Positions 8,848 through 30,743 of a DNA stretch of 64,000 nucleotides are shown here, in pieces. The stretch is from Dipteris shenzhenensis (taxonomy: Eukaryota): assembly GCA_047967505.1 (NCBI GenBank), contig CM106538.1; one strand, written 5' to 3'. Within the stretch, counting starts at the first letter, position 1; every line of letters starts with the position of its first letter. The translations under genes and the position numbers were made by a program. The notes under the pieces are model-generated. The model did not search any database. It saw only the letters and a program-made list of their open reading frames with translations, and had not been told where the DNA came from.

Positions 8848-9652
8848 AGAAAGAAAGAAAGTCTATTAACATCCACTGGAGACCAAAAGGTCTATGGGAC
8901 AGCAGTACATCTGCTTTAGGGAGGGCACATGGCAGCTCCCAAGGAGTGCAAAAAGCAACCCATATTATTTAGAGTACCTACATGATAGCTTGGAAGAGTA
9001 AACAGCCATACATCAGTTTAAGACTGAGAGTCTTTTGGTTTTGATTTAAACTCTCTGATTAGTGCTACACCTTCATGGTAAACTGCCTATTTTCCATCCT
9101 TTCTGGCAGCCTTGACTTTAGCTAATTCAGTTGCCTTAATCTTGAGTTGAGCTTGTGTAAGCTCCTTTGCTATCCATACTTTGATGCCCTTTAACTTGTA
9201 AGATTGTCGAAGAAGCTTGATCCGCATATCTTTTGACTTCAGTGTAAGGACTGCATGACCTTTATAGTGCAAAATAGAAGCTGGCCTAGAGTCGTCATCA
9301 TCTTGCTCATCATTATCCACCCAATCAATGTTGGGCAAGCTTGCTTTGATCTTTGTCAATATTCACTATATGTGTCCTCCTCTTTGTACCAATCTTTTGG
9401 GAGCCCCCTATTCGAATCTTCAGCGCATTATCACATCTAGCTTCGTGTTCTTTAATCTCTGCTTTGTTGTCCACTTCCCCGATCACTTCCTTCTTAGCAG
9501 TTTGTACTTCAGTGTGAACAAGATCTTTGACTGTAGAGACTAGCTGCGGGGTAAGGGGGGAATCCTTACAAGATTTTACAGCCTCATCAATTACTGCATG
9601 CTTACCAGCCCTTCCAGAATGTGAAGTCGGGCCTTTACTTCTGCCAGTTCCA
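8848..9652 (-). mobile_element. ORF1-only RTEX-like retroposon, copy A (5'-truncated)
   Basis: ORF1-like frame (...KLKGIKVWIAKELTQAQLK...ARKDGK*AVY...KDSQS*), ~120 nt 3' UTR, stem-loop at 8871-8900, (TTTC)n tail. Near-identical to copy B. Confidence 0.8.
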
Positions 9653-12499: not shown

Positions 12500-12595
12500 C
12501 AATGACACAACTGTGGGCTGATCCCCATGTGTCGAATGAGGTGCTCCATTTGCTCCCGTGGGAGAGCTTTTGTGAAGACGTCGGAAAGGTTGTCG
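12500..12595 (-). pseudogene. Copia RNase H C-terminus
   Basis: DNLSDVFTKALPREQMEHLIRHMGI* (ADIFTK motif), immediately before the PPT. Confidence 0.85.
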
Positions 12596-13845
12596 GGGCT
12601 GTCGGACAAGACATTGGAAGTCGTCGATGATGAGTGAAACCGGCCTTCAGTTAACTAAAGGGCAGTAAACCGTTTCTATCTTAGCATTCATACTTTTTAC
12701 AGCCGCATTGCATCATTCCCAATCACTTCCATTAATTAATTGCCACAGAAAAAAACTTAGAAATAAACTGAGAATAGTTGGATGGAGGCTAGAATGCCCT
12801 TGCTCAATGAAACATCACATGAGACACCCATTGGCCCAAATGCCTTGGCATCCCTTTCGGTATTTATTTAATTATTCTGAAAATGGATCACCCTTGTACT
12901 ATGTTTATGGCAACTCCATTGTCTGAGCCACCAAACTGCACACGTGACCTCAAAGGAAGAAATCCACACACTGCCCCTCTGGCATAAATCTCGGTTGTCG
13001 GACAGGTGGTTGGTGCTGTCGGACAATACATTGGACATCGTCGATGATGAGTGAAACCGGTCTTCAGTTAACTAAAGGGCAGTAAACTGTATCTATCTTA
13101 GCATTCACACCTTTTACAGCTGCATTGCATCATTCCCAATCACTTCCATTAATTAATTGCCACAGAAAAACACTTAAAAATAAACTGAGAATAGCTGGAT
13201 GGAGGCTAGAATGCCCTTGCTCAATGAAACATCACATGAGACACCCATTGGCTCAAATGCCTTGGCGCCCCTTTCGGCATTTATTTAATTATTCTGAAAA
13301 TGGAAAATGCTTTACAACAAGGGCTCACCCTTGTACTATGTTTATGGCAACTCCACTGTCTGAGCCACCAAACTGCACACGTGACCTCAAAGGAAGAAAT
13401 CCACACACTGCCCCTCTGGCATAAATCTAGGTTGTCGGTGCTGTCAGACAATACATTGGACGTCGTCGATGATGAGTGAAACCGGCCTTCAGTTAACTAA
13501 AGGGCAGTAAACTGTATCTATCTTAGCATTCACACCTTTTACAGCCGCATTGCATCATTCCCAATCACTTCCATTTATTAATTGCCACAGAAAAACACTT
13601 AGAAATAAACTGAGAATAGCTGGATGGAGGCTAGAATGCCCTTGCTCAATGAAACATCACATGAGACACCCACTGGCCCAAATGCCTTGGCGCCCCTTTC
13701 GGTATTTATTTAATTATTCTGAAAATGGAAAATGCTTGCTCACCCTTGTACTGTGTTTATGGCAACTCCACTATCTGAGCCACCAAACTGCAGACGTGAC
13801 CTTAAAGGAAGAAATCCACACACTGCCCCTCTGGCATAAATCTAG
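12588..13845. repeat. Three tandem ~420 bp repeats
   Basis: Units start at ~12588, ~12992 and ~13429 (ggttgtcgg...ggcataaatct). The same spurious ORF recurs at 12708, 13125 and 13550. Confidence 0.95.
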
Positions 13846-14740
13846 GTACACCCTTTGTAACTGGGTGTCGGTCCACAGCCTGAATGGCCAAAGGGGAAAC
13901 TTTGAGCAACAAAATACACAACAAGCTTCCAAAAATGACAGAATGGGAAGTAAAAGAGGGTCAGAACGACCGTACCTGCTGTCCTTGGAAGAGGGGGGAA
14001 CTCTACCCTTGCACCTATCCCCTGTCCAGGCTCCCAGCGGTGCATAGTGACCCTCAACCACGAACAAGAGTAGCAAATGAAAAAGGATTCGCCTCCCGAG
14101 GGCAGCAGATCCCAGAGCACAGGCTAGCAAGAGAAATGAGCAACCTGCCTCGGGGTGTGAGCAAGGGGCTTGTACGATCAGCCGTACCACAATCCGTGCA
14201 ATCCAAAAAATATGTCCGTACAACCAGCAAATGGTCCGCACACGAGCTTGAAATCACCTCGTTAATTAATGCATCTTGGGACTTAAGCCAAGAGCCGCAC
14301 AACAGCAGCAAATGCCTTAGGAAACGTGCAAGGAGTTCCGTACACCCCGTACGGAAGGCCGTACAGTCTGTAAGGAAAGCAGCAAGGAGATAATCGGGAT
14401 GCATGCAGCCTTACTTTGCGAGCCAACCGCCTCAAGATGCATGACGCAAACTTCCGTACGTTTTTTTTTCACGTAGCTCTCCAAGGTACCAGAGAGAGCA
14501 AAACCAGGTAGAGAGAGAAAGGTCACACTTGTCATCACATAGGACTGCCACGTGGCTCATTAAAGCCCCTAACCCTCTTACCAATGACACACTTTGGGTT
14601 CCCTTGGGCCCAACTTTATGACCCCTCTAAACCTTGCCTTGCCCCTAGCATTAGTGGGTGCACCTAGGAATTAGTGGGTGCACCTTAGGGGTTTTTCAAA
14701 GTCCACGGGATTATTTGCACACAAAAAATCACGGCCCTGC
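12588..14740 (-). mobile_element. Non-autonomous DNA-transposon-like insert in Copia RNase H
   Basis: Interrupts RNase H between ELIV (~14745) and DNLSDVFTK. One end reads CAGGGCCG (hAT-like) with subterminal ggtgcacccactaat repeats. The other end is not recognisable. Confidence 0.5.
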
Positions 14741-14742
14741 TG

Positions 14743-14942
14743 TGACAATGAGCTCCCATACGAAGTGGTAATGGACTTTGATGTGCTTCTGAAACACTGG
14801 GTTCCTCGCAATGGCTATGCAACTTTGGTTGTCACACATGACCACTTTGCCTCCTCCTGGAGTCACATCCATATTCTCAAGTATCCATCTAAGCCACAAT
14901 GTCTTGCATGCTGCAGCGCACGCAGCTTGGTACTCCGCCTCT
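14743..14942 (-). pseudogene. Copia RNase H (middle part)
   Basis: EAEYQAACAAACKTLWLR...CDNQSCIAIARNPVF.KHIKVHYHFV.E. Confidence 0.9.
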
Positions 14943-17490
14943 GGACAGTTTATACCGGTTACATGCTTTAGTTGTTCATGGGGACCATGGGCACTCCAAA
15001 ATGTGGCATGAAAGGTTTGGTCATGTCAATTACGGTACTCTTATAGAAATGCAAAAGTCCAAGATGGTGGAGGGACTTCCACCTATCAGAAATGCAGAGA
15101 AAGTCTTCCAGGCTTGCTTGGAAGGCAAGCAACACCAGGAGCGATTCCCACAGGAGGCTACATTGAGGGCTAAGGAACCATTGGAGCTGGTCCACTCCAT
15201 CATTTGCAGACCAATGTCAACCAACTCATTTGTAGGTCCACATATACTCTTCTATTTGTGGATGACTTTAGTCGGATGACTTGGACATACTGCCTGGCCA
15301 AGAATTATCAAGCATTTGAGAAACTCAAAGACTAGAAGGCCAAGGTAGAGAAGAAAACACAATTCCACGAGCCGCAGACTCTTTGAGGAGGCGAAAGATA
15401 TACCGGAATGGCAGCCTGCCATGAAGGTAGAGATGGATGCCATTGTGAAAAATGACACTTGGGACTTGGTAGTTCTCAGCTCACAGGCTGAACCTCCCAA
15501 ACATACGTGAATACAACCTTTACAAGAGCCCATTTTGGCAACATGCCACTTGTCAATTTCCTAGACTACTATCCTAATTACATGCCACATAGGGCAACTC
15601 TTGAATCTTTGTAGTCCTTGGTCACATGATGATGTAGACTCTTGCTAAGCAGCCTTAGCCTCCTTAAATGTAGGGCATTTTACCTCTCTTAGTACCTGCA
15701 GCCATTTAGTGAAACATACCCACCATGGCACCCATTAAATGTTAGCGTTTTTGCATGCAAAATAAACTTTAGACTAGTCCTAGTCACTGTGGGCATCCCC
15801 ATTAAGCACATGTGCACACAACACATAGAGAATACTTTGATTGACTGAGGTCAACCCTCTTGACCATAATTAAGGGGCTTTGACCATAGGTCATGGCGTC
15901 TTTATTAAAGCCAAGGCTCTCCAACCGAAGTTGGGAATAACTTGGTTGACCGAAGTCAACCCTCCTTGGCTAAAGCCAAATCTTGTTGGTCGAAACCAAC
16001 ACTCTTTGACTGTAGTAAGCTTTGAAATACTTTGGTTAACCGTAGTTAACCCTCTTGGCGTGAGCCAAGTCTCCTTAACCAAGGTTAGGCTTACCTAACC
16101 GAGGTTCAATATCTTTTGATCGAAGTCAATACTTTGACCAATGAAAATAACTCTTTGACCATAATTAAATAAATGAAAAACTCTATAACTATGATTAAAT
16201 AAATGGTTAACTAGAACTTTGACTATGAGTATTTACAACTTGGTGACACACCAAGTGGGTGTACAAGCTAAAGTTCAAGTGTGATGGGAGCTTCGACAAA
16301 TATAAAGCAAGATTGGGAAAAAAAGGCTATGCTCAGTCAGAGGGATTGGACTTTGACGAGACCTTTGCCCCCACAGCCCGGATGGTCACTATTCGGACAG
16401 TGATCACTTTGGCTGCCCATCATGGATGGTCCATATTCCAGATGGACGTGAAGTCAGCATTCTTGAACGGAACCGTGGAGATCAGGTTGCAGGGTCATGT
16501 CAAAGGTATGCAGACTAAAGAAGGCGTTGTACGGGCTGAAACAGGCCCCAAGAGCATGGTACCAGTGCATCGTTGTATTCTTCTCGAAGATCAGGTTGAA
16601 TCGAAGCCCGTCGGATGCGAACCTGTATCTCTTCTCATAGGGGAGTCAAAGGCTGGTTTCCCAAATTTGTCATCTCGAACTCCTCCATGAGTACCTTCTT
16701 GACCTGAGAGATCTTCCTGGTATGGTCAAAAGCGGTAAGGGTAAGATCGTCCACGTATAGGATCTCTCCACTATTTCCTTAGGATCGAGGTCAAACAGAA
16801 CAAGGACAAGATATTCATCTCGCAGGAGAAATACTGTCGGGAGACACTGAAGCAGTTCGAGATGGAGGACTGCAAGGATGCTATGACACCAATACAGGTC
16901 GGGCAGAAGTTGAGCATTCATGACTCTTTAGATCTGGTAGATGCTAGCAGGTCTTGATAGTTGGTGGGAAGTCTGCTTTATCCAACCAACACGAGGCAAG
17001 ACATCTCCTTTGCTGTTGAGTTGTTGGTCACTTCTCTACAAACCCCAGGGAGAATCACTGGAAGGCAGGTCTACGGGTGCTGAGGTATCTAAATGGTGCT
17101 AGCACATACGGGACTACATACACCACAAGATTTGAGTTAGGTGAATTCTGTGACTCAGATTGGGCGGGTGAAGTCAATTGGTGGGAAGTCTGTTTTATCT
17201 AACCAACACCAGGCCGGACATCTCCTTTGCTGTTCAGTTGTTGGTGAGTTCTCTACGAACCCCAGGGAGAATCACTGGAAGTTGGGTCTATGGGTGCTGA
17301 GGTATCTGAATGGTACTGGCACATACGGGATTACATACACCACATGATTTGAGTTAGGTGGATTCTGTGACTCAGATTGGGCGGGTGACAATGACACCAG
17401 GCATTTGATTTTAGGATATTGTTTTGTGCTTGCATCAGGGGCCATTTCTTGTCTGAGCAAGAAACAACCTTCAGTTGCCCCTTCTTCTAC
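14943..17490 (+). pseudogene. Inverted Copia pol segment (integrase HHCC, RT, start of RNase H)
   Basis: WHERFGHVN..., KWVYKLK...KYKARL...YAQSEGLDFDETFAP...QMDVKSAFLNG, and GFCDSDWAGD...SKKQPSVA. Lies on the opposite strand to the LTRs and gag. Integrase core is deleted, and there is a ~217 bp tandem duplication at 16961/17178. Confidence 0.9.
15471..16237. mobile_element. Non-coding insertion in Copia RT flanked by a 7-bp duplication (ACTTGGT)
   Basis: ACTTGGT at 15464-15470 and 16238-16244, splitting WDLV from TKWVYK. Contains many ttgaccgaggtcaac-like subrepeats. Confidence 0.75.
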
Positions 17491-18745
17491 TCCTCGACAC
17501 CTTGGGCCACGACCTGTCCGTCTTCCTTGGAAATGACGGTGATTTTCCCATTATGGAAGATACCAGACATCTTATGCTTATCCATCTGACTCACAGAGAG
17601 CAGATTCTTGCACAAATTTGGAACAAACAGCACACTGGATACTACCTTCTCTTCTGCCGCTGTGGTGATGATCGGAATACTGCCAATCCCCTTCACAGGG
17701 CATGTTGAGCTATCCCCCACGGTCACCTTCGAGTCAAGATGGGTCCCCTCCATGGTCTTGAACCACTCCTTGTTGGACATGTGTTTTGAGGTGCCACTAT
17801 CCACATACCAAGCCTCCTTGCGGTTACTCGCTGCATGAGCAGAGCAGTGCTCTATGGACAAGAAAAACTCTTCAGTAGTGACATTGGCTGTGTCTGTCCT
17901 AGGCTCCTCCTTGCTATGGGACTCCTTTTTCTTTTGATCCACCTTCTTCTTCTGACAACCTTTTGCATAATGACCAAGATTTTCACAGTACAAACATTTT
18001 ACCTTCTTTTTCTACTCTGAGTCGCTGGCCTTGCGTTTGGAGTCCTTAAACTTGCCCTTACCAGGCTTGTCCTTCACCAGAAGTGCTTTATCATCGTCCT
18101 TGTTGTACAACTTCTCCCGGGATTTCTCCTTTATAACAAGGGCCCAAGTCAGAGGCTTGGTCCTTGGTCTTGCTGTCACCGTGGTGATGAATCCCTTGAA
18201 GCTGCATGGTAAGCTCTTGAGCGTCAACACTGCCAATTGACAGGTGTCTACCTTCTGACCAACCGATGCCGGTTGATCTCTTAACACTTTAACTTTTGTT
18301 AAGCGGTCACGCACACATATTGAAAAGCTGTTGCTGGAGAGTCGAGATATGAGAAGTGTTATCTGTCTCGACAAGTCCTTCAGAGTGGCCCAGCCTCCAT
18401 TGACATGTCAGCGATCTAGATATGAGGAATCATAGAGTCCGCCGTCGTCCCTATGATTAAAGCCAGGGCTTGGGCATCTCTATCCTCCCATGCTTCGAGT
18501 TCATCTTTGTCCACGAATCCTGCCCTTGTGATGTACAACATCCTTTGACTTTGCGTCCACTCCCGTCGTGAGCTTTCACAGCTTCCGGGCCACAAGGTGA
18601 CTCTGGACCTTTACCTTCCAGATGGGATAATGTGTCCCATCTAGCTTCCCAGACTCTCCAAAGTTAGGGATGGTATAAGGGGGAACATGAATAGCGGCGG
18701 AACGAGTATAAATAGTAGTGACAGAAGAACCTTCTGACTTCGACA
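17491..18745 (-). pseudogene. Copia gag-protease
   Basis: KLDGTHYPIWKVKVQSHL, CX2CX4HX4C-like knuckle, WYVDSGTSKHM, VLFVPNLCKNLLSVSQM. Frameshifted. Confidence 0.9.
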
Positions 18746-18885
18746 TGTCTGATGTAAATTTCACACAGCAAAGAATCTCCAAATAGAACGTGCGGTAGAA
18801 ATAGAACTGTGCAAACTTGGTTCGAATCGGAGTCGCTTTCCTGAACAAGAACTCCTTCCTTCAATGTGAGAGAGCTGAGAATCAT

Positions 18886-18897
18886 GCTCTGATACAA
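18886..18897 (-). promoter_or_regulatory. Primer-binding site (tRNA-iMet)
   Basis: TTGTATCAGAGC, one mismatch to TGGTATCAGAGC, adjacent to the 5' LTR. Confidence 0.85.
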
Positions 18898-19482
18898 TGC
18901 TGGAAATGAGGGATAGAATTACTCTAACCTCTCAACCTATGCGGAATAGGAACAGCTCTGTCTCACACACTCAATGATGCAGACCACGCAAGAGAAGCTC
19001 ACTCAAATGATAGAGTATAGATAGCATATACAAGAGAGAGAAAATCAGATATCTTCCTCCACCACATAGGGGGCATGGCACAAGCTCAAGATGAGCACAA
19101 AAGACCAGCAGAGGGCTGGATACCTAAAGCCTGAGATCACTCCTACTTTTCCTGCTCCACACTGCCTTTGTAGGCTTCAATAGCTGCTGTGGCTGATGCA
19201 AAAATGAGGGAGTAGGGGGGGCTTTATATAGCCTCTGCTCCAAGCCTGCAAATCGACCAGCAAGGGGGCCAACCCCTTGCCTAAATCATTGGAATGTGCA
19301 GCCTATGACTCTTTGTACCCTATTAAAGGGCCACCTCCAGGCCCTTTGGGCTGCTGCTTTGCTGGGCACATGCAGCTTCCTAGATCTGCTCTAAAGGGGC
19401 TTCCATACAGCCTAGATCCACCCGAATCCCCCTATGATCCAATGGCCCTTTGTCCCCACAAATCGGGGGCTCACAGGTAACA
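18898..19482 (-). repeat. Copia 5' LTR
   Basis: Aligns with 11894-12492, with many substitutions and several indels. Confidence 0.9.
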
Positions 19483-20956: not shown

Positions 20957-22169
20957 ATCAAAAAATTTTAGGGATTTGAGCCACTCCAAATGCATTGATG
21001 TGGCCTTGTTTACGCAAAAATTTTTGCACAAAACTGCATCATCATTAAAATCACCCTTTTAATGAGAAGCTATGAAAGGAGCTATTCATACCACAATCAA
21101 TACTTTACTACTTGAACCTCCTACTCCAAAATGTACTTATGCTACTGTGACTACACAAATACCACTACACTGATTTCCGTTGAGAATATGCTTGTATCTT
21201 GTGTTTGGCATTGTAGCCTGCTGGTATGGGATCATCCCTCTCTATCTTTTGCTTAGGGGTCTTTGTTTGGGAGTAATTATGATCAAGTCTTCTCTTCACC
21301 TTTGAAGACCTGACAACAGAGAGAAATTTTTGCATAAATGAACACTGACATATTTGTGGTGTATGAATATGTGTGAGTGCGTCAGAAAGAAAGAAAGAAA
21401 GTCTATTAACGTCCACTGAAGATCAAAAGGTCTATGGGACAGCAAGAAACCCTCTAGTACATCTGCTTTAGGGAGGGCACATGGCAGCTCCCAAGGAGTG
21501 CAAAAAGCAACCCATATAATTTAGAGTACCTACATGATAGTCTGGAAGAGTAAACAGCCATACATCAGTTTCAGACTGAGAAAGAAAGAAAGAAAGAAAG
21601 TTTATTAAAGTCTTCGGAAGACCAATGGGTCTATGAGACTGTGAAAATCCTGATACAATGAGCTGTGGTAGTGGAGCTACTAAACGAGCGTCAATACCAA
21701 TGCAAAATGCAAAAAATGCAAAAAATGCAGAATGGCAGTACTAAGTCCTAAGTACAACATAGTCATGTCGATGGTCGACTATATATCAATCTCAGCATCA
21801 TCATCAATATCATCATCATCCCCAGCAACAGCAAGATATCAAGATGGATGAGGCAGTGGAGGCATGAAGTCGGCAATAGAGTGCTATCGGCGCACGTCTC
21901 CTGGTCGTAGCTCCTGGTCGTAGCTCTGTGTCTAACCAGGGCTACTGTGACCCCCGTCGGTCGGGCTCCAACTCTAAACAAGGAGGGGATGTCTCCAAGT
22001 GTGATCTGTGTGTCGAACCTCTGTCTGAGCTATCGGGTCACGGGCTCCGGGTCACGGTCATGTCGAGGCCTCGTCTCGTTGGGGTCCATGTGATCTAGCT
22101 GAAAGAACTCCATGATAGAGCTCTGAGAGGGATCAACCGAGGAAGAAGTCTGCTCCTGTCTCCGTGCTT

Positions 22170-24890
22170 GAAGTATCCTCTCGTAGTGTCTAAGTGCCTC
22201 ATGAATGAAACCTGCCAAACACCGCTGGTCTGGGTAGGAGAGGAAATCGGCTAAAATCCCATAACTATCTCTGAAGGGGTAGTGGAAACATCCTCGGATC
22301 TCATAGTACACAGGACACCTGAAGATGAAATGCTCCTTTGTCTCAACCTCCTATATGTCACATAGTGTGCATATGCGCCGCTCCCTGGGTAGTCGCTCTG
22401 CTCTGCCGCTCTTGATGCGAAGTCTATGTGAAGAGACCCGGAACTGCCCAAGAGAGATCCTCATCGAGTGGGGTAGGTGAATCTGTGTGTATCCTGGTGG
22501 GTCAATGAAACCCTCCGTTGTGATATGTAAGAAGTGATCTCTGTAGAAGCTAAGCTTCACTGGGAGTTCACTCGGTTCCAACCAGGTCTGAAAAGTGTGT
22601 ACCTGTAGTAGATCCTCACGGATAACCTGGTTGACCTCGTGTGATAAGAGGGGAGAGAACGGAGCATCCATGCTATACTAAAAGGGAGGTAGTCTATCCA
22701 TGTGGAGCCCCAGTCGCTCAAACCATCTCTCTGTACGTGCATACCAGCACCTCTGATCTCCTCCTGCTGCAAGTGCCATACTGTCTCAAGCTCGTCAATG
22801 TAGAGGCCAAACAAGGTAGGCGACAAAGGACACCCTTGTTTGATCCCGATGGTACTCATGATCTCGTCTGTCCACCCGGATCCTACCCGAACTCTGCCAG
22901 AAACTCTCTCGTAAAGTGCCATGACAGCCCAAATGATCTCCTGGTCATAACCCAAGTCCTGTAGGTGCCGTATGAGGCGGGCTCTCGGGACTGTGTCAAA
23001 TGCCTTGCAAAAATCCACAAAGCAACAATAAACCCTCTGCTTCCATGACCTCGCCTCCTCGATGATACATCTGAGCATCAGAATGTGGTCCATGGTTCCA
23101 TGATCACGCCGGAATCCAGCCTGTCCTGCTGCTCTGAGTCCTTGACACTCTGCAAGTCTGCTAACCTCGGAGTCAAGTACTGATGCATAAATCTTAGACA
23201 TGACATGTCCAATCATAATGGTCCTGTAGTTCTCCGGGCTCATGGGATCCCCTGCCTTGTGGATGGGTGAGATAGTGTTAATGGTCCAAGTGTGTGGAAA
23301 TCCCAAACAAACCGCTTCATTAAAAAGCTTTGCTAAGATCGGGGCTAGGAGGTTAATCCCATATGCAATGAACTCAGTGCATAGTCCCTCATGATCCTTC
23401 GCTTGGCCATTATGAAGTTTCATTACAGCATCCTTTACCCCTCCTCTAGCGAAGAGGGTGCAGGATGTGGGACGAGGCATGTGTGAGAGGCTAGGAACTC
23501 TGGCTGATTTGGGATGTCATAAAGTGTGCGTGCATAATCAAACCAGATCTGGGTGTCAGTGAGTGGCGGAGGGGACCGTCCTTCTAGAAATATCCGCCAG
23601 AAGTCCTTAGAGTTGTTACTAAACAAAATGTTCAGTAGCCCCTCCTCGTTTCGACGAACGAAGTCTAGTTTCTTCCTCCGTACCAGTCCACGGTATTCAC
23701 ATAGCGTATCTGGTGCGCTCGGAAGACTGTTTTTGGTTTCGAATCTGAGTTGACGGCGTAAGGCCTTACACTCATCATCGTACCAACTATTACAGGGTAC
23801 GGTTTCAGGGGATGGTGGGCGGGTGGAGCGGGTGGTGTGGGGAAAAGCGTGAATGGTAGCCTCGTGTAGTGAGCGGGTGACAAGGGCAGCACGATCCTCT
23901 AAAAGGGGTATGAAGTCAATATAAGCGAGAAGTATGTACAGATGGCCAGAGTAAGAAGGTGAGTGATCCCGATCAAAGCGTATATCGTGGTAGGTGGAGT
24001 AAGTACTGAGTGGGGTGGAAGGTGCTGTGCGAAGGGAGGTGGAGATGCGAAAGAAAAGGTATGTATGATCAGCCCCTGGGGGAGAGGTGCTACAGTGAAG
24101 TCAGTAATGCGAGATGTGAAGACAGGGGATCCCATGATGTAATCAACAACACTGGAGCCCCCCCCATGTGGAAAGCATGTGAAACCACCTGAAGCGGGCC
24201 ATCTGTCAAGACCATTATAGATAATGAGATCATGTATTTTGCCTAGGTCTAATAGGGCCTACCCATAGGATGAGAGTGGACCTCGCCTATCAGCCAAAAC
24301 CCGTAGCATACCTGCCTCCTCAAGGTCAACATCTGCCAGTAGAGTGGAATCATCTCTGAAATCAAGAAGTGGTACCTGACGGGCCCTTGTCCTCGCGTTG
24401 AAGTCCCCCACTAGAAGGACTTCTCTGCGGCTAGAAAAGTCAATGATGGACTGATAAAGGACAGCAAATGGGGATGTTTCATCATCACGTCGAATATCTC
24501 TGGCAAAGTGGGAGGTCTCCGGGGGGGAAGTAGCAAACTGCGACAAACAGATTCTGGCTGTCCATGTGTCGTATCCGGATCCAAAGAAATCTGGAATGTG
24601 TATCTCTCTGCTCTACTGAAATGATCCCCCGAAGTTGGATCTGAAAAGGACTGCAACTCCACCTGAACCTCGAACTCCTCCTGTACCCCTCGTCTCATCT
24701 CTGTAGGCAGACTCCCATGTATATCCGTTGACTATTGGGAGAGGGCGCTCTGGACTCTGATGTGTCTCTGTATAGAAGACTATGTCATGGCCTGTATAGG
24801 ATTCCGAGAAGTTCCCTGGTTCTGACCATAAGGTACCATTATAGTTCCAAATGGTGCAGGACAGGGTCTCGGATATCTGAGTCTCATAGG
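22170..24890 (-). pseudogene. LINE ORF2 (endonuclease-reverse transcriptase), frameshifted, RT YADD region deleted
   Basis: ORF fragments at 24259-24546, 23435-23626, 22557-23480 and 22351-22671. The frame jumps after LYIDELE. Confidence 0.85.
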
Positions 24891-24899
24891 CCCCGTTCC

Positions 24900-25940
24900 C
24901 TATGTAGGGGAGGGGGCAGGTGTCCTATGGGGGCCTGTAAGAAGTCGTCCCTCTCGTACCACTGCCCACTTCCCCTCCTTTCGGGCCTGATCCCGCTGCT
25001 GCAGCAAAGAGCGCCTCTCCTCAACCTGTAGAGGTGTGAGTTCCTCATCCATAGAGATCGTTGGCTGATCTTGAAGGACTGACCTATGTCGTAGAGCTGA
25101 AAGTCGTGCCTGAGTGTCATGAAATCGTATGATCAGGGGTTGCTCTCGGTTGGGATCTCTCCCCACCCGCCATGCCCTCTCTATCCTGTGCTCAGCCACA
25201 CCCAAGGTAGCGGTCACGAACGCAGTTGCATCTACCATGGGTGTAGCCTCAGTGCGTGGGATCCAGCGTACTCTGATGTTGAGAGCCTTACTGGCTCTCT
25301 GCTGCTGCTGCATGAGGGTAGTCGAAACGGTGACCCTTGCGGGTTCCCGTTTGGCCACGTCAACCCATCTGGAAGTCTCCTCAATAGCAGATTGCATGCT
25401 CGCAATCTGTGCCTCGACCACCCGGGTACTCCCTGGGGCAGTGTGTATGGCTGTGACCTCCTGTCGGAGCTGCATGATATCCTGTCTGAGTCCCTGAATA
25501 AGACCCGCCTGCTCTCGAATGGCCCTAGCCTGCTCTTGTATGATGTGGCTCTGCTCCCGGTTGAAGCGGACCTGCTCCCGTGCGAAGCAAGCCAGCTCCA
25601 TCTCACGCTCATGAAAACTATGTATCTCCGTGAGTAGGGTCTCACGGGCCTCTGGTGTGTCAGTCCACCCATGTCCATGCTGAAACTGTGGTGACTGTGG
25701 CATGAAAGAGTGGGACTGAGTCCGAAAACTGGACGGTGGCTGAGTGAGGAACGGAGATGACAGTGGAATGGATGAGGCAGCCCCAACGGGGTGTGGGAGG
25801 GTGGGCTGACTGAGAGGGAGAGGGGAGAGTGAAGCGTAATGCGGCACAGTGTATGACACCTCCGAAGTAGGGGTCATAAGATGTACGAGAGCTGTAACAA
25901 GAGAAGAGGGAAAGGGAACAACAACTGGCACCATGGGCAT
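24900..25940 (-). CDS. LINE ORF1 protein (Pro/Ser-rich, coiled coil, RRM-like C-terminal domain)
   Basis: 346 aa open frame: NIRVRWIP...IERAWRVG...PLIIRF...SMDEELTPLQ...ARKEGKWAVVREGR. Confidence 0.8.
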   Translation of the reverse strand: MPMVPVVVPFPSSLVTALVHLMTPTSEVSYTVPHYASLSPLPLSQPTLPHPVGAASSIPLSSPFLTQPPSSFRTQSHSFMPQSPQFQHGHGWTDTPEARETLLTEIHSFHEREMELACFAREQVRFNREQSHIIQEQARAIREQAGLIQGLRQDIMQLRQEVTAIHTAPGSTRVVEAQIASMQSAIEETSRWVDVAKREPARVTVSTTLMQQQQRASKALNIRVRWIPRTEATPMVDATAFVTATLGVAEHRIERAWRVGRDPNREQPLIIRFHDTQARLSALRHRSVLQDQPTISMDEELTPLQVEERRSLLQQRDQARKEGKWAVVREGRLLTGPHRTPAPSPT

Positions 25941-26399
25941 GAGTATGTCACTAATCGTAGATGTAGATGGAGCTGAGACTAGGAACTAGAGCTGGGCCTG
26001 AAGCGGGGACTGAAGTCGAAGTAGAGATAGAGATAGAGGGAGCTGAGGTTGGAGCTGAAAACGAAACTGACACTGTAGCGGGAGTTGAGGTTGAGGTTGA
26101 GGTTGAGGTAGAGATAGAGGCTGAAGAAGCTGAGGCGGGTCCTACCTTTGCCTTGTTGTTTACCCCGAGTCCACTTCGGTTGTAACGTGTGTTCACATCC
26201 TCCAAATTCAGTTGTGTCGTTTGCTTTTTTGTTGTTGTTGTTATTTTCGTCTTTCTTGGCTTTGTCCCCCATTCTCTTGGGGTGCGGGTACAGATCTTAG
26301 TGTTAATGTTCAGACGGTGGGAGCGGGAGCACCGGTTGCCCCCCCATAATGGGAGGCACGTCCAGTGCGAGGTGGTGGAGAGGTAGTGCGGAAGCCTGA

Positions 26400-27236
26400 A
26401 GTGGAGAGGTAGCCAAGAGGTGGAGAAGGAGGAGAGGCTAAGATGGCGAGGATTTTATTTTAAAAAAAAAAAAAAAAAGGTGGTTGTGGTTTCCTTTTTT
26501 TTTTTTGCCCAAAAAAAAAAAAAAAAGAAGTGGCGAGGGGATTAGAGAAAGGGGGGGGGGGGGCGGTGGATGAGTGGAAAAGGAGGGAGGGAGGTGGCTG
26601 AGTGAGGGGGTAGTGGGGAGCGAGGGGTGGCTGAGGGGAGCGAGGGGCTGAGCAAGGGGTAGCGGGGAGCGAGGGGTGGTTGAGGGGAGTGAGGGGTGGT
26701 TGAGGGGAGCGAGGGGCTGAGTGGGAGCGAGGAGCGAGAAGGGGGGGTGCGGGTAGCGAGAAGGGGGGCTGAGCGGGAGCGAGGAGCGAGGGGCTGAGCG
26801 GGAGCGAGGGGCGAGAAGGGGGGGTGCGGGTAGCGAGAAGGGGGGCTGAGCAGGAGCAAGGGGCGGGGGGCTGAGTGGGCTGAGGGGAGCGAGGGGTGGC
26901 TGGGGGGAGCGGGGGGCTGAGCGGGCTGAGCGAGAGCGGGAGCGAGGAGCGAGAAGGGGGGTGCAGGTAGCTGCAGCAGCACCCAGGGAGGAGCTGGAGC
27001 GGGAGGAGCAGCGCCAACGGAGGGGCCGAGCAGGGTGGGTAGGTAGGCTGAGCAAAGGGAGGCTGAGCAGAGCGGAGCGGAGGAGCGGGAGGTAGAGGCG
27101 GGGGGGGGAGAGGCGGAGGAGTGGGAGGTAGAGGCGGGGGGGGAGAGGCGGGGGGGGAGAGGGAGAGGGAGAGGAGAGGGAGAGGGAGAGGGAGAGGAGA
27201 GGGAGAGGAAGAGGGAGAGGGAGAGGGAGAGGGAGA
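26400..27236. repeat. Purine/G-rich low-complexity repeats at the LINE 5' end
   Basis: Reiterated gagcgagggg, gggagagg and gcgggggggg motifs, with A, T and G homopolymer runs at 26456-26565. Confidence 0.9.
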
Positions 27237-27293
27237 GTCTTTTGGTTTTGATTTAAACTCTCTGATTAGTGCTATGCCTTCACAGTAAACTGC

Positions 27294-27842
27294 TCATTTT
27301 CCATCCTTTCTGGCAGCCTTGCTGACTTTAGCTAATTCAGTTGCCTTAATCTTGAGTTGAGATTTTGTAAGCTCCTCTGGTATCCATACTTTGGTGCCCT
27401 TTAACTTGTAAGATTGTCGAAGAAGCTTGATCCGCATATCTTTTGACTTCAGTGTAAGGATTGCATGACCTTTATAGTGTAAAATAGAAGCTGGCTTGGA
27501 GTTGTCATCATCCTGCTCATCATCATCCACCCAATCAATGTTGGGCAAGCTTGCTTTGATCTTTGTCAATATTTCACTATATGTGTCCTCGTCTTTGTAC
27601 CATCTAGCTTCGTGTTCTTTAATCTCTGCTTGAATATCAGACTTACTTGCTTTGCTATCCACTTCCACAATTACTTCCTTCTTAGCAGTTTGTACTTCAG
27701 TGTGAACAAGATCTTTGACTGTAGAGACTAGCTGCGGGGTAGGGGGGAAATCCTTACAAGATTTTACAGTCTCATCAATTACTACCTGCTTACTAGGCCC
27801 TTCCAAAATGTGAAGTCGGGCCTTTACTTCTGCCAATTCCAA
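27294..27842 (-). pseudogene. ORF1-like protein of the ORF1-only retroposon (copy B)
   Basis: C-terminus KVWIPEELTKSQLK...ARKDGK(W->stop)AVY aligns with the LINE ORF1 SMDEELTPLQ...ARKEGKWAVV. Confidence 0.75.
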
Positions 27843-28441
27843 TCATAGCTCTCTCACTGTCTGTTGCAGATAAAATATCTGATCCTGTTGCCCGAGGATG
27901 GGTCGTTTTGAGCCTTCTTATTGGTAATTCTGTGCATATGGAGAGGGTGTCATGGCTGCAACTGTAAAGTACCGAGTCCTGATGGATGTTGAAGGAGTTG
28001 AGGGGGACTTGGAGGAGAGGGTAGGCCAGTCCATAATTGGCTATCTGTTGAACCCCCTAGCTTAACCTAACCCCCGGCGGACCTCCACCGGGTTGGGTTG
28101 GGGGTTTAGCCCAACTCGGGGTTAGGGTTAGTTTGGCTGCTTCTAACAGATTCAAAGGGAGAGGTACGGTCGAAGAGGTTCGGGCTGCTACTATTGATTG
28201 ATTGTACGGTTTGGGCTGCTGCTAACGGTTGTATGGACGGGGGAGAGGTACAAACGGGAGGACTAGGACTAGGTACAGACAGAGCTGTTGTGATGGGGGG
28301 AGGTACGGCCGTACGGCCCTGGGCCGTGGTACGGACGACGAAGCACTGTGGTACTGACGACGATGAAGGTACGGACAAACGTATGGATGGAGGTACAACG
28401 AAGGTACGGACGGACTGTACGGTATGGGAAGAGGCTATACA

Positions 28442-28444
<3 letters not shown>

Positions 28445-28500
<56 letters not shown>
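28445..28500. repeat. (AG)n microsatellite
   Basis: Perfect dinucleotide run abutting the 5' end of copy B. Confidence 0.95.
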
Positions 28501-28501
<1 letters not shown>

Positions 28502-29410
28502 ATGCCCACAGTTGATGATGTTGATGGGATCGTTTCTAACCGTGTTAAAACTTAGTCTTTGTTTTGCTTTACATGATTGAATTTAGGCCCATTCCTTTCA
28601 TCCTTCTGGGTTATTCTACTGCCTACTTGTACATCTTAGCTTTACTCAACCTAGGCTCCCATTCCTTTCATACTCTGGGTTATTTTACGGTCTACTTGTA
28701 CATCTTAGCTTTACTCAACCTAAGGCTTTTATCACTCTTAATCAAACTTAGTGTTCGGTGTCCATATCTATGATTTAAAACTGCACTGTGGTTTACTTCA
28801 AATCATGAGTTGGGGTGGTTTCTTGTTACATCTAGATATATACTTGTATCCATAGAGCTTAGGTTTACCCAATTTTCAGAGCTTATCATTACTCAATCTA
28901 CCTTAGGCTTGGTTGTCAATATTCATGATTAACAACTTTACTCAAATATGCTAGTCTGATTTGATAAGAGTGCAGCATATGTGATTGGGTTAGATATTAG
29001 CTATTTCTTGTCAATTTTGAAAAGCTTTGCCATGTGACCCCTCTACCCATGCACGCAACTAATTAACATTAGGTCTACAACAAACAAAAATTGCTCGTAT
29101 ATTATTTATTTGACATATGATAGGCAAATGACTGATTTTCCCAGTAATGGATAAAATTTTGCGTATGATTGTCATGCCACTTTCCATTCTATCAACTCAG
29201 GGATGCACTGGGCATCTCTAGTCCACTTGATCATGGTGGGTTTGGAACGCACAGTATATCTTTGGCCTTTCAAAGACAATAATAGATCTACCTCTTTTAA
29301 AGACAATACATAACAAGAATGACAAATGTGATGTTTATACAGAGGTAAGAGAGCAGCAAGCCATAGCAAGTAACAATAAGATTTTACATATTTGGGGATT
29401 GCAAGATAGT

Positions 29411-30422
29411 TGCCTTAGCTACTTTGAAATGGAAGAGGAAGAGGAATGCATTGATGAGGAAAAGATTATCCAACTCAAGAAGGTAGTGCCACAAATCGGT
29501 TGGAATGAAAATGACATAAGTCTTATCACGTGAAAGGGAAACCAAGCACATATTTATTTCAAAGAAAGGATTTTAAGAACCAAGATCCTTAGAGAAACCA
29601 ACAAGCTCAAGGGTACTAAGATTTGGATATTTGAAGAGCTCACTCCGACCCAACTCAAACAAAGGGCAAATGAACTTATCAAAGTGAAAGAAGCAAGGAA
29701 AGAAAGTAAATGGGCGGTTTATCAAGACGGGCAAGCACTCATTAGAGATTTTAAACCTAACCCCAAAGAGTCTCAGTCTTGAACTGATGTTATTCAGACC
29801 ACCCTTAATATAGTACTTGAATGTAGTTATGCTATGATAATTTGGGGTTGAGCTGCTGTACTCCCCCATAGACTCTCAGTCTCTAACTGCCTTAGCTATT
29901 TTGAAATGGAAGAGAAAGAGGAATGCATTGATGAGGAAAAGATTATCCAACTCAAGAAGGCAGTGCCACAAATCGGTTGGAATGAAAATGACATAAGTCT
30001 TATCACGTGAAAGGGAAACCAAGCACATATTTATTTCAAAAAAAGGATTTTAAGAACCAAGATCCTTAGACAAACCAACAAGCTCAAGGGTACTAAGATT
30101 TGGATATTTGAAGAGCTCACTCCGACCCAACTCAAACAAAGGGCAAATGAACTTATCAAAGTGAAAGAAGCAAGGAAAGAAAGTAAATGGGCGGTTTATC
30201 AAGACGGGCAAGCACTCATTAGAGATTTTAAACCTAAACCCAAAGAGTCTCAGTCTTGAACTGATGTTATTCAGACCACCCTTAATATAGTACTTGAATG
30301 TAGTTATGCTATGATAATTTGGGGTTGAGCTGCTGTACTCCCCCATAGACTCTCAGTCTCTAACTGATGATGATTTTGGTGTGCATTTTGTCCCATAGAC
30401 CCGTGAAGTCTCCTGTGGACGT

Positions 30423-30426
<4 letters not shown>
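29411..30426 (+). mobile_element. ORF1-only RTEX-like retroposon, diverged subfamily (copy D), with a 477 bp tandem duplication
   Basis: Frame KLKGTKIWIFEELTPTQLKQRANELIKVKEARKESKWAVYQDGQALIRDFKPNPKESQS*. Units 29411-29887 and 29888-30364, stem-loop at 30390-30420, then (CT)n. Confidence 0.8.

Positions 30427-30463
<37 letters not shown>
30426..30463. repeat. (CT)n microsatellite
   Basis: Perfect run directly after the 3' end of copy D. Confidence 0.95.
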
Positions 30464-30465
<2 letters not shown>

Positions 30466-30743
30466 CATTGCATGCTTTATGCAGTTGGGAGACTACCAAA
30501 TCCTGTCACCTATCATCTATGGGTTCCTTGATGCCCACTACTTGAGCTCGATTAGCCTTTTATGCCTTTTGTTCTTCAAAAAGTAGGGAGGAGTTTCTTA
30601 GCAGTCTCATATGTTGCAATTTCCTTCTTTGTCTCCTAGATAGACCCCAGGGGGTCTTGGGATATGCCAAAACTTAGAGGGCAGCTTATGTTTGGTATTA
30701 ACTTGGAACATAATTGTTGCTTTGCTCACTTTCTGGCCTGGTG

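Follow-up and report, generated by a model that had tools for sequence, protein, structure and literature searches.

The window, by which we mean the whole 64,000-nucleotide stretch of DNA analysed here, is eukaryotic and transposon-rich. Three insertions in it, called A, B and D, have the same order on their sense strand (Table 1): a frame of ORF1 type is followed, after 115-128 non-coding nt, by a hairpin module with two stems and then by a microsatellite of pyrimidines. This is the layout proposed in the initial annotation, an ORF1-like frame with a stem-loop and a pyrimidine tail behind it. The distance from stop codon to hairpin is 115 nt in A (9017 to 8903) and 128 nt in D (30260 to 30387), and the tail is (CTTT)n in A and B, and (TC)19, not (CTTT)n, in D. 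All frames had been said to end in K[DE]SQS*. This holds for A (KDSQS*) and D (KESQS*), and fails for B, where the TAA stop has become GAA and KDSQS is followed by E.

Table 1. Positions of the ORF1-only copies A, B and D and of the LINE nested in copy B, in window coordinates.
Element	Feature	Position	Strand	Remarks
Copy A	whole copy	8848-~9655	-	5'-truncated ORF1-only element
Copy A	tail	8848-8861	-	(CTTT)n
Copy A	hairpin module	8862-8902	-	
Copy A	3' UTR	8903-9017	-	
Copy A	stop codon	9018-9020	-	
Copy A	ORF1 remnant	9021-~9655	-	TAG at W codon, frame breaks
Copy B	3' piece	21384-21581	-	tail, hairpin module, 3' UTR and last ORF1 codons, stop changed to GAA
Copy B	tail	21384-21401	-	
Copy B	hairpin module	21402-21442	-	
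Nested LINE	whole element	21582-27236	-	full-length, defective, inside copy B; 5.65 kb
Nested LINE	tail	21582-21600	-	(CTTT)n
Nested LINE	hairpin module	21601-21642	-	
Nested LINE	ORF2 remnants	22030-24924	-	at least six frame pieces; EEP-type endonuclease, RVT_1
Nested LINE	ORF2 C-terminal Cys/His stretch		-	read by eye
Nested LINE	ORF1	24900-25985	-	361 aa stop to stop
Nested LINE	5' region	to 27236	-	pyrimidine-rich, low complexity
Copy B	5' piece	27237-28444	-	ORF1 remnant, then putative 5' UTR
Copy B	ORF1 remnant	27237-~28036	-	
Copy B	open stretch	27294-27842	-	182 aa; stops upstream
	(TC)28	28445-28500		sense strand, beyond the 5' piece of copy B
Copy D	whole copy	≤29306-30463	+	diverged subfamily; ORF1 homology from 29306
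Copy D	stop codon	30257-30259	+	
Copy D	hairpin module	30388-30426	+	
Copy D	tail	30426-30463	+	(TC)19

The copies lie at three separate sites, and A is 5'-truncated. In a BLASTN comparison within the window, A and B, at two separate sites, were 87.7% identical over 635 nt and 90.2% identical over 194 nt, as befits the close relatives (about 88% identity over about 825 nt) that they had been taken for. Copy D matched A and B at 69-72% over about 211 nt, and was rightly assigned to a diverged subfamily. What did not hold for D was the extent given for it, 29411 to 30426, and its presumed simple structure: a 477-bp stretch is duplicated in tandem within it (29411-30366, 2.0 copies, 98% matches), and since its ORF homology reaches upstream to 29306, position 29411 is the start of a repeat unit and not that of the element. 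The 5' limit of copy B lies somewhere in 28170-28444. The part shared by the family may stop near 28170, and a contig from sequencing run X1 tracks copy B only as far as 28169.

The absence of endonuclease and reverse transcriptase (RT) between ORF1 and tail was confirmed by TBLASTN: the endonuclease, RT and C-terminal pieces of the nested LINE matched that LINE alone, so that A, B and D are without ORF2. Homology of their frame to the C-terminus of the full LINE's ORF1, also part of the first description, was recovered for copy D, at 37% identity over 75 aa (E 3e-6). The nested LINE is itself decayed, with its ORF2 in at least six frame pieces. Among the 15 of 62 joints listed for contigs of runs X1, X2, X3 and X7 over 21000-30700, none bridged 21581 to 27237. 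In run X7 (organism coded E) the summed contig depth was 31298 in the bin 22944-23267, far above neighbouring bins; this peak over the RT core probably arose because the conserved RT is matched, at 80% likeness, by LINEs of many families.

Each of the three window copies is defective and dead, and for this reason they are silent on present activity. In both A and B the W codon of KDGKWAVY has been turned into a stop, TAG in A and TGA in B, in addition to other stops and frame breaks, and in D each of the two repeat units has a TGA in frame. Copy B is also without the RRM beta-1 stretch ...NALKIRIGG..., which is kept in A and in outside relatives. The two W-codon stops (9090-9092, and the region of 27294-27296) are different G-to-A changes in A and B, a difference more in keeping with C-to-T decay of the opposite strand than with a stop inherited in common. 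Several contigs of the organisms coded A and E overlap the body of copy B, with 5 contigs of run X1 over position 27294.

No Pfam family scored above threshold for any ORF1, and a word-based search with the 182-aa frame of copy B found no homologue. A profile made from the window's own ORF1 pieces, searched against 1.84 billion representatives, matched 216 proteins at E<=1e-3, 40 of them at E<=1e-10. These relatives were mainly of two sorts. The first comprises ORFs of 196-269 aa with an initial M, found on contigs 0.6-1.7 kb long (e.g. P0002, P0008, P0010), which stop a few residues past ...GKWAVYRxGxAxIxxF..., just after the CTD. The second comprises longer ORF1s resembling that of the window LINE (e.g. 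P0026), and the profile also matched ORF2-linked ORF1s. Longer fused forms were not found at E<=1e-5 in a word-based search with the ORF1 alignment, which is weak evidence, and the protein atlas gave no useful lead for ORF1. A word-indexed library gave 16 matches, of which the 6 named ones are all hypothetical proteins of Adiantum capillus-veneris (e.g. GOP47_0019267, identical with P0020, 250 aa) or Adiantum nelumboides. As all six come from Adiantum, they point to a fern family.

The AlphaFold model of P0002, computed from a 19-row alignment, had a mean pLDDT of 86.2. It shows helices at 27-129, a beta-alpha-beta-beta-alpha-beta unit at 132-209, and a helix with a beta-hairpin at 213-246. 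The best 10 PDB matches of this model were all human LINE-1 ORF1p, followed by ordinary RRMs. Matches to the trimer entries 2ykq, 2yko and 2ykp had E values of 3.6e-6 to 5.6e-5 over 175-184 columns, and the match to the RRM-CTD entry 2ldy had an E value of 1.5e-3. Compared with the PDB at the level of the sequence profile, ORF1 gave coiled-coil matches only, at profile positions ~20-100, that is in the N-terminal part. On the basis of the domain order in the model and of its fold matches to human LINE-1 ORF1p, the frame is predicted to be an L1-type ORF1p, with coiled coil, RRM and CTD in that order.

Elements of the same kind were then sought in other sources. A first metagenome scan gave 34 pattern matches, 0 of them confirmed, and viral contigs scanned for the ORF1 of these ORF1-only, or half, elements contained none. 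The second metagenome scan yielded ten loci. In L001 (JAEIGA011463846.1, 1076 nt), an ATG at 77 opens an intact 240-aa ORF ending at 796, followed by about 200 nt of UTR, GTCCCATGGGCCGACGTTAATACA, (CTTT)5 and 30 nt of flank, with the module at 997-1023. No EN or RT matches were found in L001, which is a complete half element from an independent metagenome contig. In locus L002 a 5' UTR follows (TC)n and leads into an intact ORF of 242 aa, and the contig stops 55 nt past the stop codon. L003 to L007 are full LINE relatives in which the endonuclease starts within about 20 nt after ORF1, and their RTs are 53-56% identical to the RT of the window LINE. One of them, L006, is intact, with an ORF1 of 357 aa and an ORF2 of 1233 aa (EEP 7.9e-7, RVT_1 3.6e-34); its 3' end reads GTCTTATAGGCCATTTTGGTCTCTTACAAGACGTTAATATAT(CTTT)4, the module being as in the half elements. 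L008 (364-1779) and L009 (1-1413), 98.9% identical over 1405 nt, are internally deleted LINEs, in which the C-terminus of a LINE-type ORF1, 74 nt of ORF2, the 3' UTR and the hairpin are left. They represent a second, younger type of non-autonomous derivative, present in a relative's genome, and serve as an example of a plain deletion derivative in this LINE group, with LINE-type ORF1 and ORF2 fragments kept. A further candidate from genome contigs, L011, was rejected, as it was a chance GKWAVYRGG in a 733-aa bacterial membrane-type ORF with 65.5% GC.

At their 5' ends, the 5'-complete half elements (B and L002) and the full LINEs L003, L004 and L005 have a (TC)n stretch, at 28445-28500 in the window, 5-32 in L002, 82-99 in L003, 667-704 in L004 and 68-109 in L005; the window LINE has (TCTCCC)n-like repeats at its 5' end (26585-27237). 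The (TC)n stretches vary in length and have differing upstream flanks, and the 3' flanks are mostly not (TC)n. They could be part of the element, as a pyrimidine-rich promoter or 5' end, or could reflect a target preference. Beyond (TC)n, no 5' similarity was found between half element and LINE. Clear target-site duplications were found for none of A, B and D; by eye, A showed a weak candidate with 8 of 9 positions matching, and the nested LINE an ambiguous one of 2-4 nt.

Other repeats were noted in the window. A 425-bp tandem repeat (12587-13847, 3.0 copies, 90% matches) has a similar open frame in each unit. At ~14000-18900 lie pieces of an LTR retrotransposon that looks Copia-like by eye: a frame with a gag zinc knuckle on the minus strand (17487-18011) and an RT-like one on the plus strand (16247-16690). 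As these pieces are on opposite strands, the remnants are rearranged. A 217-bp x2 repeat is found at 16961-17388, and a 69-bp direct repeat (28588-28727, 2.0 copies, 91% matches) lies just past the 5' side of copy B.

The 3' ends of the copies had been described as matching that of the nested LINE. By BLASTN, B and the LINE are 84% identical over 57 nt, and A and the LINE 81% over 53 nt. The match stands for the last ~45 nt plus the tail; the remainder of the 3' UTRs does not align. The likeness is not due to chance: with E values of 5e-11 to 7e-9, a covariance model of the module recovered exactly four sites in the 64 kb, those of the LINE and of copies A, B and D, whereas the best match elsewhere in the window had an E value of 0.22. 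Rfam gave 0 matches over the window. The module consists of two stacked stems making up a hairpin of ~35 nt, then GTTAAT and (CTTT)n or (TC)n. Base pairs were counted on 7 sequences (A, B, D, the window LINE, L004, L006 and L008). Among 68 cells, 91.2% were paired, versus 30-52% when the 3' partner was slid by 1-3 columns, and two-sided changes were seen in 3 of the 10 pairs (UA x4/CG x3; AU x4/GC x2/GU x1; UG x3/AU x1). With z values between -0.1 and -2.6, folds of single sequences surpassed their shuffles only mildly. Covariation thus lends moderate support to a conserved hairpin, moderate because the sequences are few and mutually related. The model also detected L005 (E 0.0014) and L009 (E 0.0022), both outside the training set, and gave a weak score (E 0.15) to the shortened module of L001. 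The module is common to the half elements, the window LINE, L004 and L006. Its outer stem is GUCC/GGAC in the half elements and GUCU/AGAC in the nested LINE, and in view of this difference the window LINE need not be the actual partner of the half elements; their true partner may belong to another subfamily.

A quick tree was built on the RRM+CTD region (95 rows, 140 columns kept; the root was not inferred). It grouped A, B, D, L001, L002 and 19 library proteins into a 24-row half-type set with an SH-aLRT of 98. None of these 24 rows is ORF2-linked, versus 9 of the 71 rows outside, namely the window LINE, L003, L006, L007, P0051, P0055, P0063, P0067 and P0144; in the last five, the CTD continues into an endonuclease. 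P0082 and P0103, which have an ORF2-like stretch ahead of the ORF1 domain, are also outside the half-type set. In a careful tree of 92 rows, from which A, P0051 and P0144 had been dropped as under half filled, the same half-type set was found with 23 rows and a support of 100/98, separate from the ORF2-linked ORF1s. The ORF1 of the window LINE was placed in a 25-row set (99/94) with 5 ORF2-linked rows, and 20 more distant rows form a group beyond both sets. A and B belong to a different subclade from D. Absence of ORF2 is directly visible in four copies, the 19 library proteins of the clade being proteins without genomic context. In these four (A, B, D and L001, spanning three subclades) ORF2 was never found between ORF1 and tail; its presence there in most copies had been named beforehand as an outcome that would speak against the proposal. 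Heterogeneous junctions were not seen either, the ORF1-to-3' UTR layout being the same across subfamilies and in the copy from another source.

Substitutions were counted by the Nei-Gojobori method over 80 codons. Between A or B and D, pS was 0.77-0.78, which is saturated so that dN/dS is not computable, and pN was 0.24-0.25. Comparison of A, B or D with L001 gave a pS of 0.73-0.74, a pN of 0.28-0.32 and a dN/dS of 0.12-0.15. Between A and B, where changes are few, the values were a pS of 0.018, a pN of 0.048 and a dN/dS of 2.7, in keeping with decay once the copies had inserted. A saturated pS with a low pN, together with the many intact ORFs, leads us to reject neutral evolution of ORF1 between subfamilies, the third outcome that had been named as contrary to the proposal, and codon comparison indicates strong purifying selection on it. 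The proposal that the ORF2-less form had been propagated and is long-lived is largely supported, by the single clade, by selection and by the identical layout of L001.

We consider it likely that an ORF1-only non-autonomous non-LTR retroposon family, sharing its 3' module with an autonomous LINE lineage, has left A, B and D as dead copies. Alternatively, the half-type ORF1 might be the first ORF of an autonomous LINE family that we did not see, with the copies as ORF2-deleted or truncated products of it. The 19 clade proteins lacking genomic context leave room for such a family, little weight attaches to the null result for longer fused forms, and internal deletions do occur in this LINE group, as L008 and L009 show (98.9% over 1405 nt). 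We nevertheless find this unlikely, given that 0 of the 4 visible copies (A, B, D, L001), from three subclades, have ORF2, that 0 of 24 clade rows versus 9 of 71 outside are ORF2-linked, and that the ORF2-less form keeps intact ORFs under purifying selection. It is more doubtful still, and in our opinion very improbable, that the ORF is a host gene for a domesticated ORF1p-like RNA-binding protein, whose mRNA was retrocopied into processed pseudogenes. The annotation of the Adiantum homologues as hypothetical proteins and the purifying selection would suit such a gene, but the divergent subfamilies and the copy from another source all end in a LINE-type hairpin and microsatellite, which fits a 3' module borne by the element and not a cellular mRNA. 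The copies are moreover many and divergent, and contigs of several runs lie over the body of copy B (5 of X1 at one site). Finally, we give next to no credence to independent local internal deletions of ordinary full-length LINEs, in spite of the ORF1 homology and 3' module that LINE and half elements have in common, since the ORF1s of A, B and D are only ~37% identical to that of the LINE over 75 aa and belong to a different, strongly supported clade, the 3' UTRs are unlike outside the last ~45 nt, A and B have the same structure at separate sites with 88% identity, and the true deletion derivative L008/L009 retains a LINE-type ORF1 and ORF2 fragments.

In the ORF1-only family, a full element measures about 1.0-1.4 kb and comprises a 5' UTR, often after (TC)n, one ORF of about 230-265 aa, a 3' UTR of 115-200 nt, the two-stem hairpin of ~35 nt, GTTAAT and (CTTT)n or (TC)n. 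It would be transcribed by Pol II, possibly via the pyrimidine-rich 5' end, and its RNA would be coated by the element's own ORF1p. The ORF2p of a partner LINE would recognise the shared hairpin and microsatellite in trans, by 'stringent' recognition, and, by target-primed reverse transcription, would turn the half-element RNA into a new genomic copy. The autonomous lineage with the same hairpin and tail encodes ORF1, an EEP endonuclease and an RT, and the LINE inside copy B is one decayed member of it. As for the broader picture, we lean, though by no great measure, towards ferns harbouring an ancient and diversified ORF1-only lineage that has lasted as an evolutionary unit of its own beside a microsatellite-tailed LINE with an L1-type ORF1, each ORF1p being under selection and a 3' recognition hairpin of ~45 nt being all that the two share.

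Which LINE clade the partner belongs to was considered from its RT and ORF1. For the RT of L006, the match to R2 proteins (E 1.7e-21) is about as good as that to human L1 ORF2p (E 1.4e-19). RTEX is among the clades with an esterase-type ORF1 (Schneider 2013, PMC3905857). The table of Ohshima (2013, PMC3747384) has only L1 and RTE for flowering plants, and has RTEX, with microsatellite tails, in green algae. With a predicted L1-type ORF1 here as against an esterase-type ORF1 in RTEX, the RTEX label is not favoured for the partner.

If the broader picture of a fern lineage is true, half elements and LINE would in effect make up a two-component LINE system of long standing, and plants would have their first described non-autonomous LINE that encodes ORF1. 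No ORF1-only LINE of plants or ferns was found in the literature searched; subscription papers and Repbase are outside this scope, and an earlier description is possible. The known ORF1-only cases (HAL1, HeT-A, Ag-Sponge) are all animal. What a plant example would add is one deep clade, clear purifying selection on ORF1p and a covarying hairpin common to the presumed partner. ORF1-only derivatives raise the question of why a LINE parasite would retain a packaging protein when SINEs do without, and the plant case would be an independent system for tests of the cis-preference of ORF1p, of stringent 3' recognition by ORF2p and of co-evolution between a LINE and its dependent element. For annotation, the Adiantum ORFs are filed as hypothetical, and TE pipelines tuned to flowering plants would miss or misfile such elements.

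L1 and HAL1 end in poly(A). Here a conserved hairpin is followed by (CTTT)n or (TC)n instead, and the RT of the partner is about as close to R2 as to L1, so that the half elements are not HAL1 proper; the hosts also differ, a mammal for HAL1 and a plant, apparently a fern, here. HeT-A and Ag-Sponge belong to other LINE clades with different ORF1 architectures, and HeT-A is telomere-specialised, whereas the insertions described here lie at separate sites and their predicted ORF1p is L1-type. Likeness with these systems lies in their coding content. HeT-A (Jockey), HAL1 (L1) and Ag-Sponge (CR1) have been classed together as 'ORF1-present' bipartite non-autonomous LINEs (Kojima 2018, PMC5786205), and HeT-A and Ag-Sponge encode one ORF1p-like protein (PMC5786205), as do the half elements. 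HAL1 encodes ORF1p alone and depends on an autonomous LINE (PMC5753468, PMC5786205), and the ORF1p of the fern family is predicted to have the L1 ORF1p fold too. Several independent origins in mammals are given for HAL1 (PMC5753468), whereas the half-type ORF1s form one deep clade. At the 3' end, a hairpin with compensatory changes, common to a LINE and a non-autonomous element, has been described for stringent-type LINEs, including a plant L1 lineage (PMC3747384). A short conserved 3' hairpin in common with a LINE thus likens the half elements to such SINE/LINE pairs (PMC3747384), with the difference that the dependent element is here protein-coding and about 1-1.4 kb long, and not derived from a small RNA. 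The family is a plant, and apparently a fern, counterpart of the mammalian half-L1 elements.
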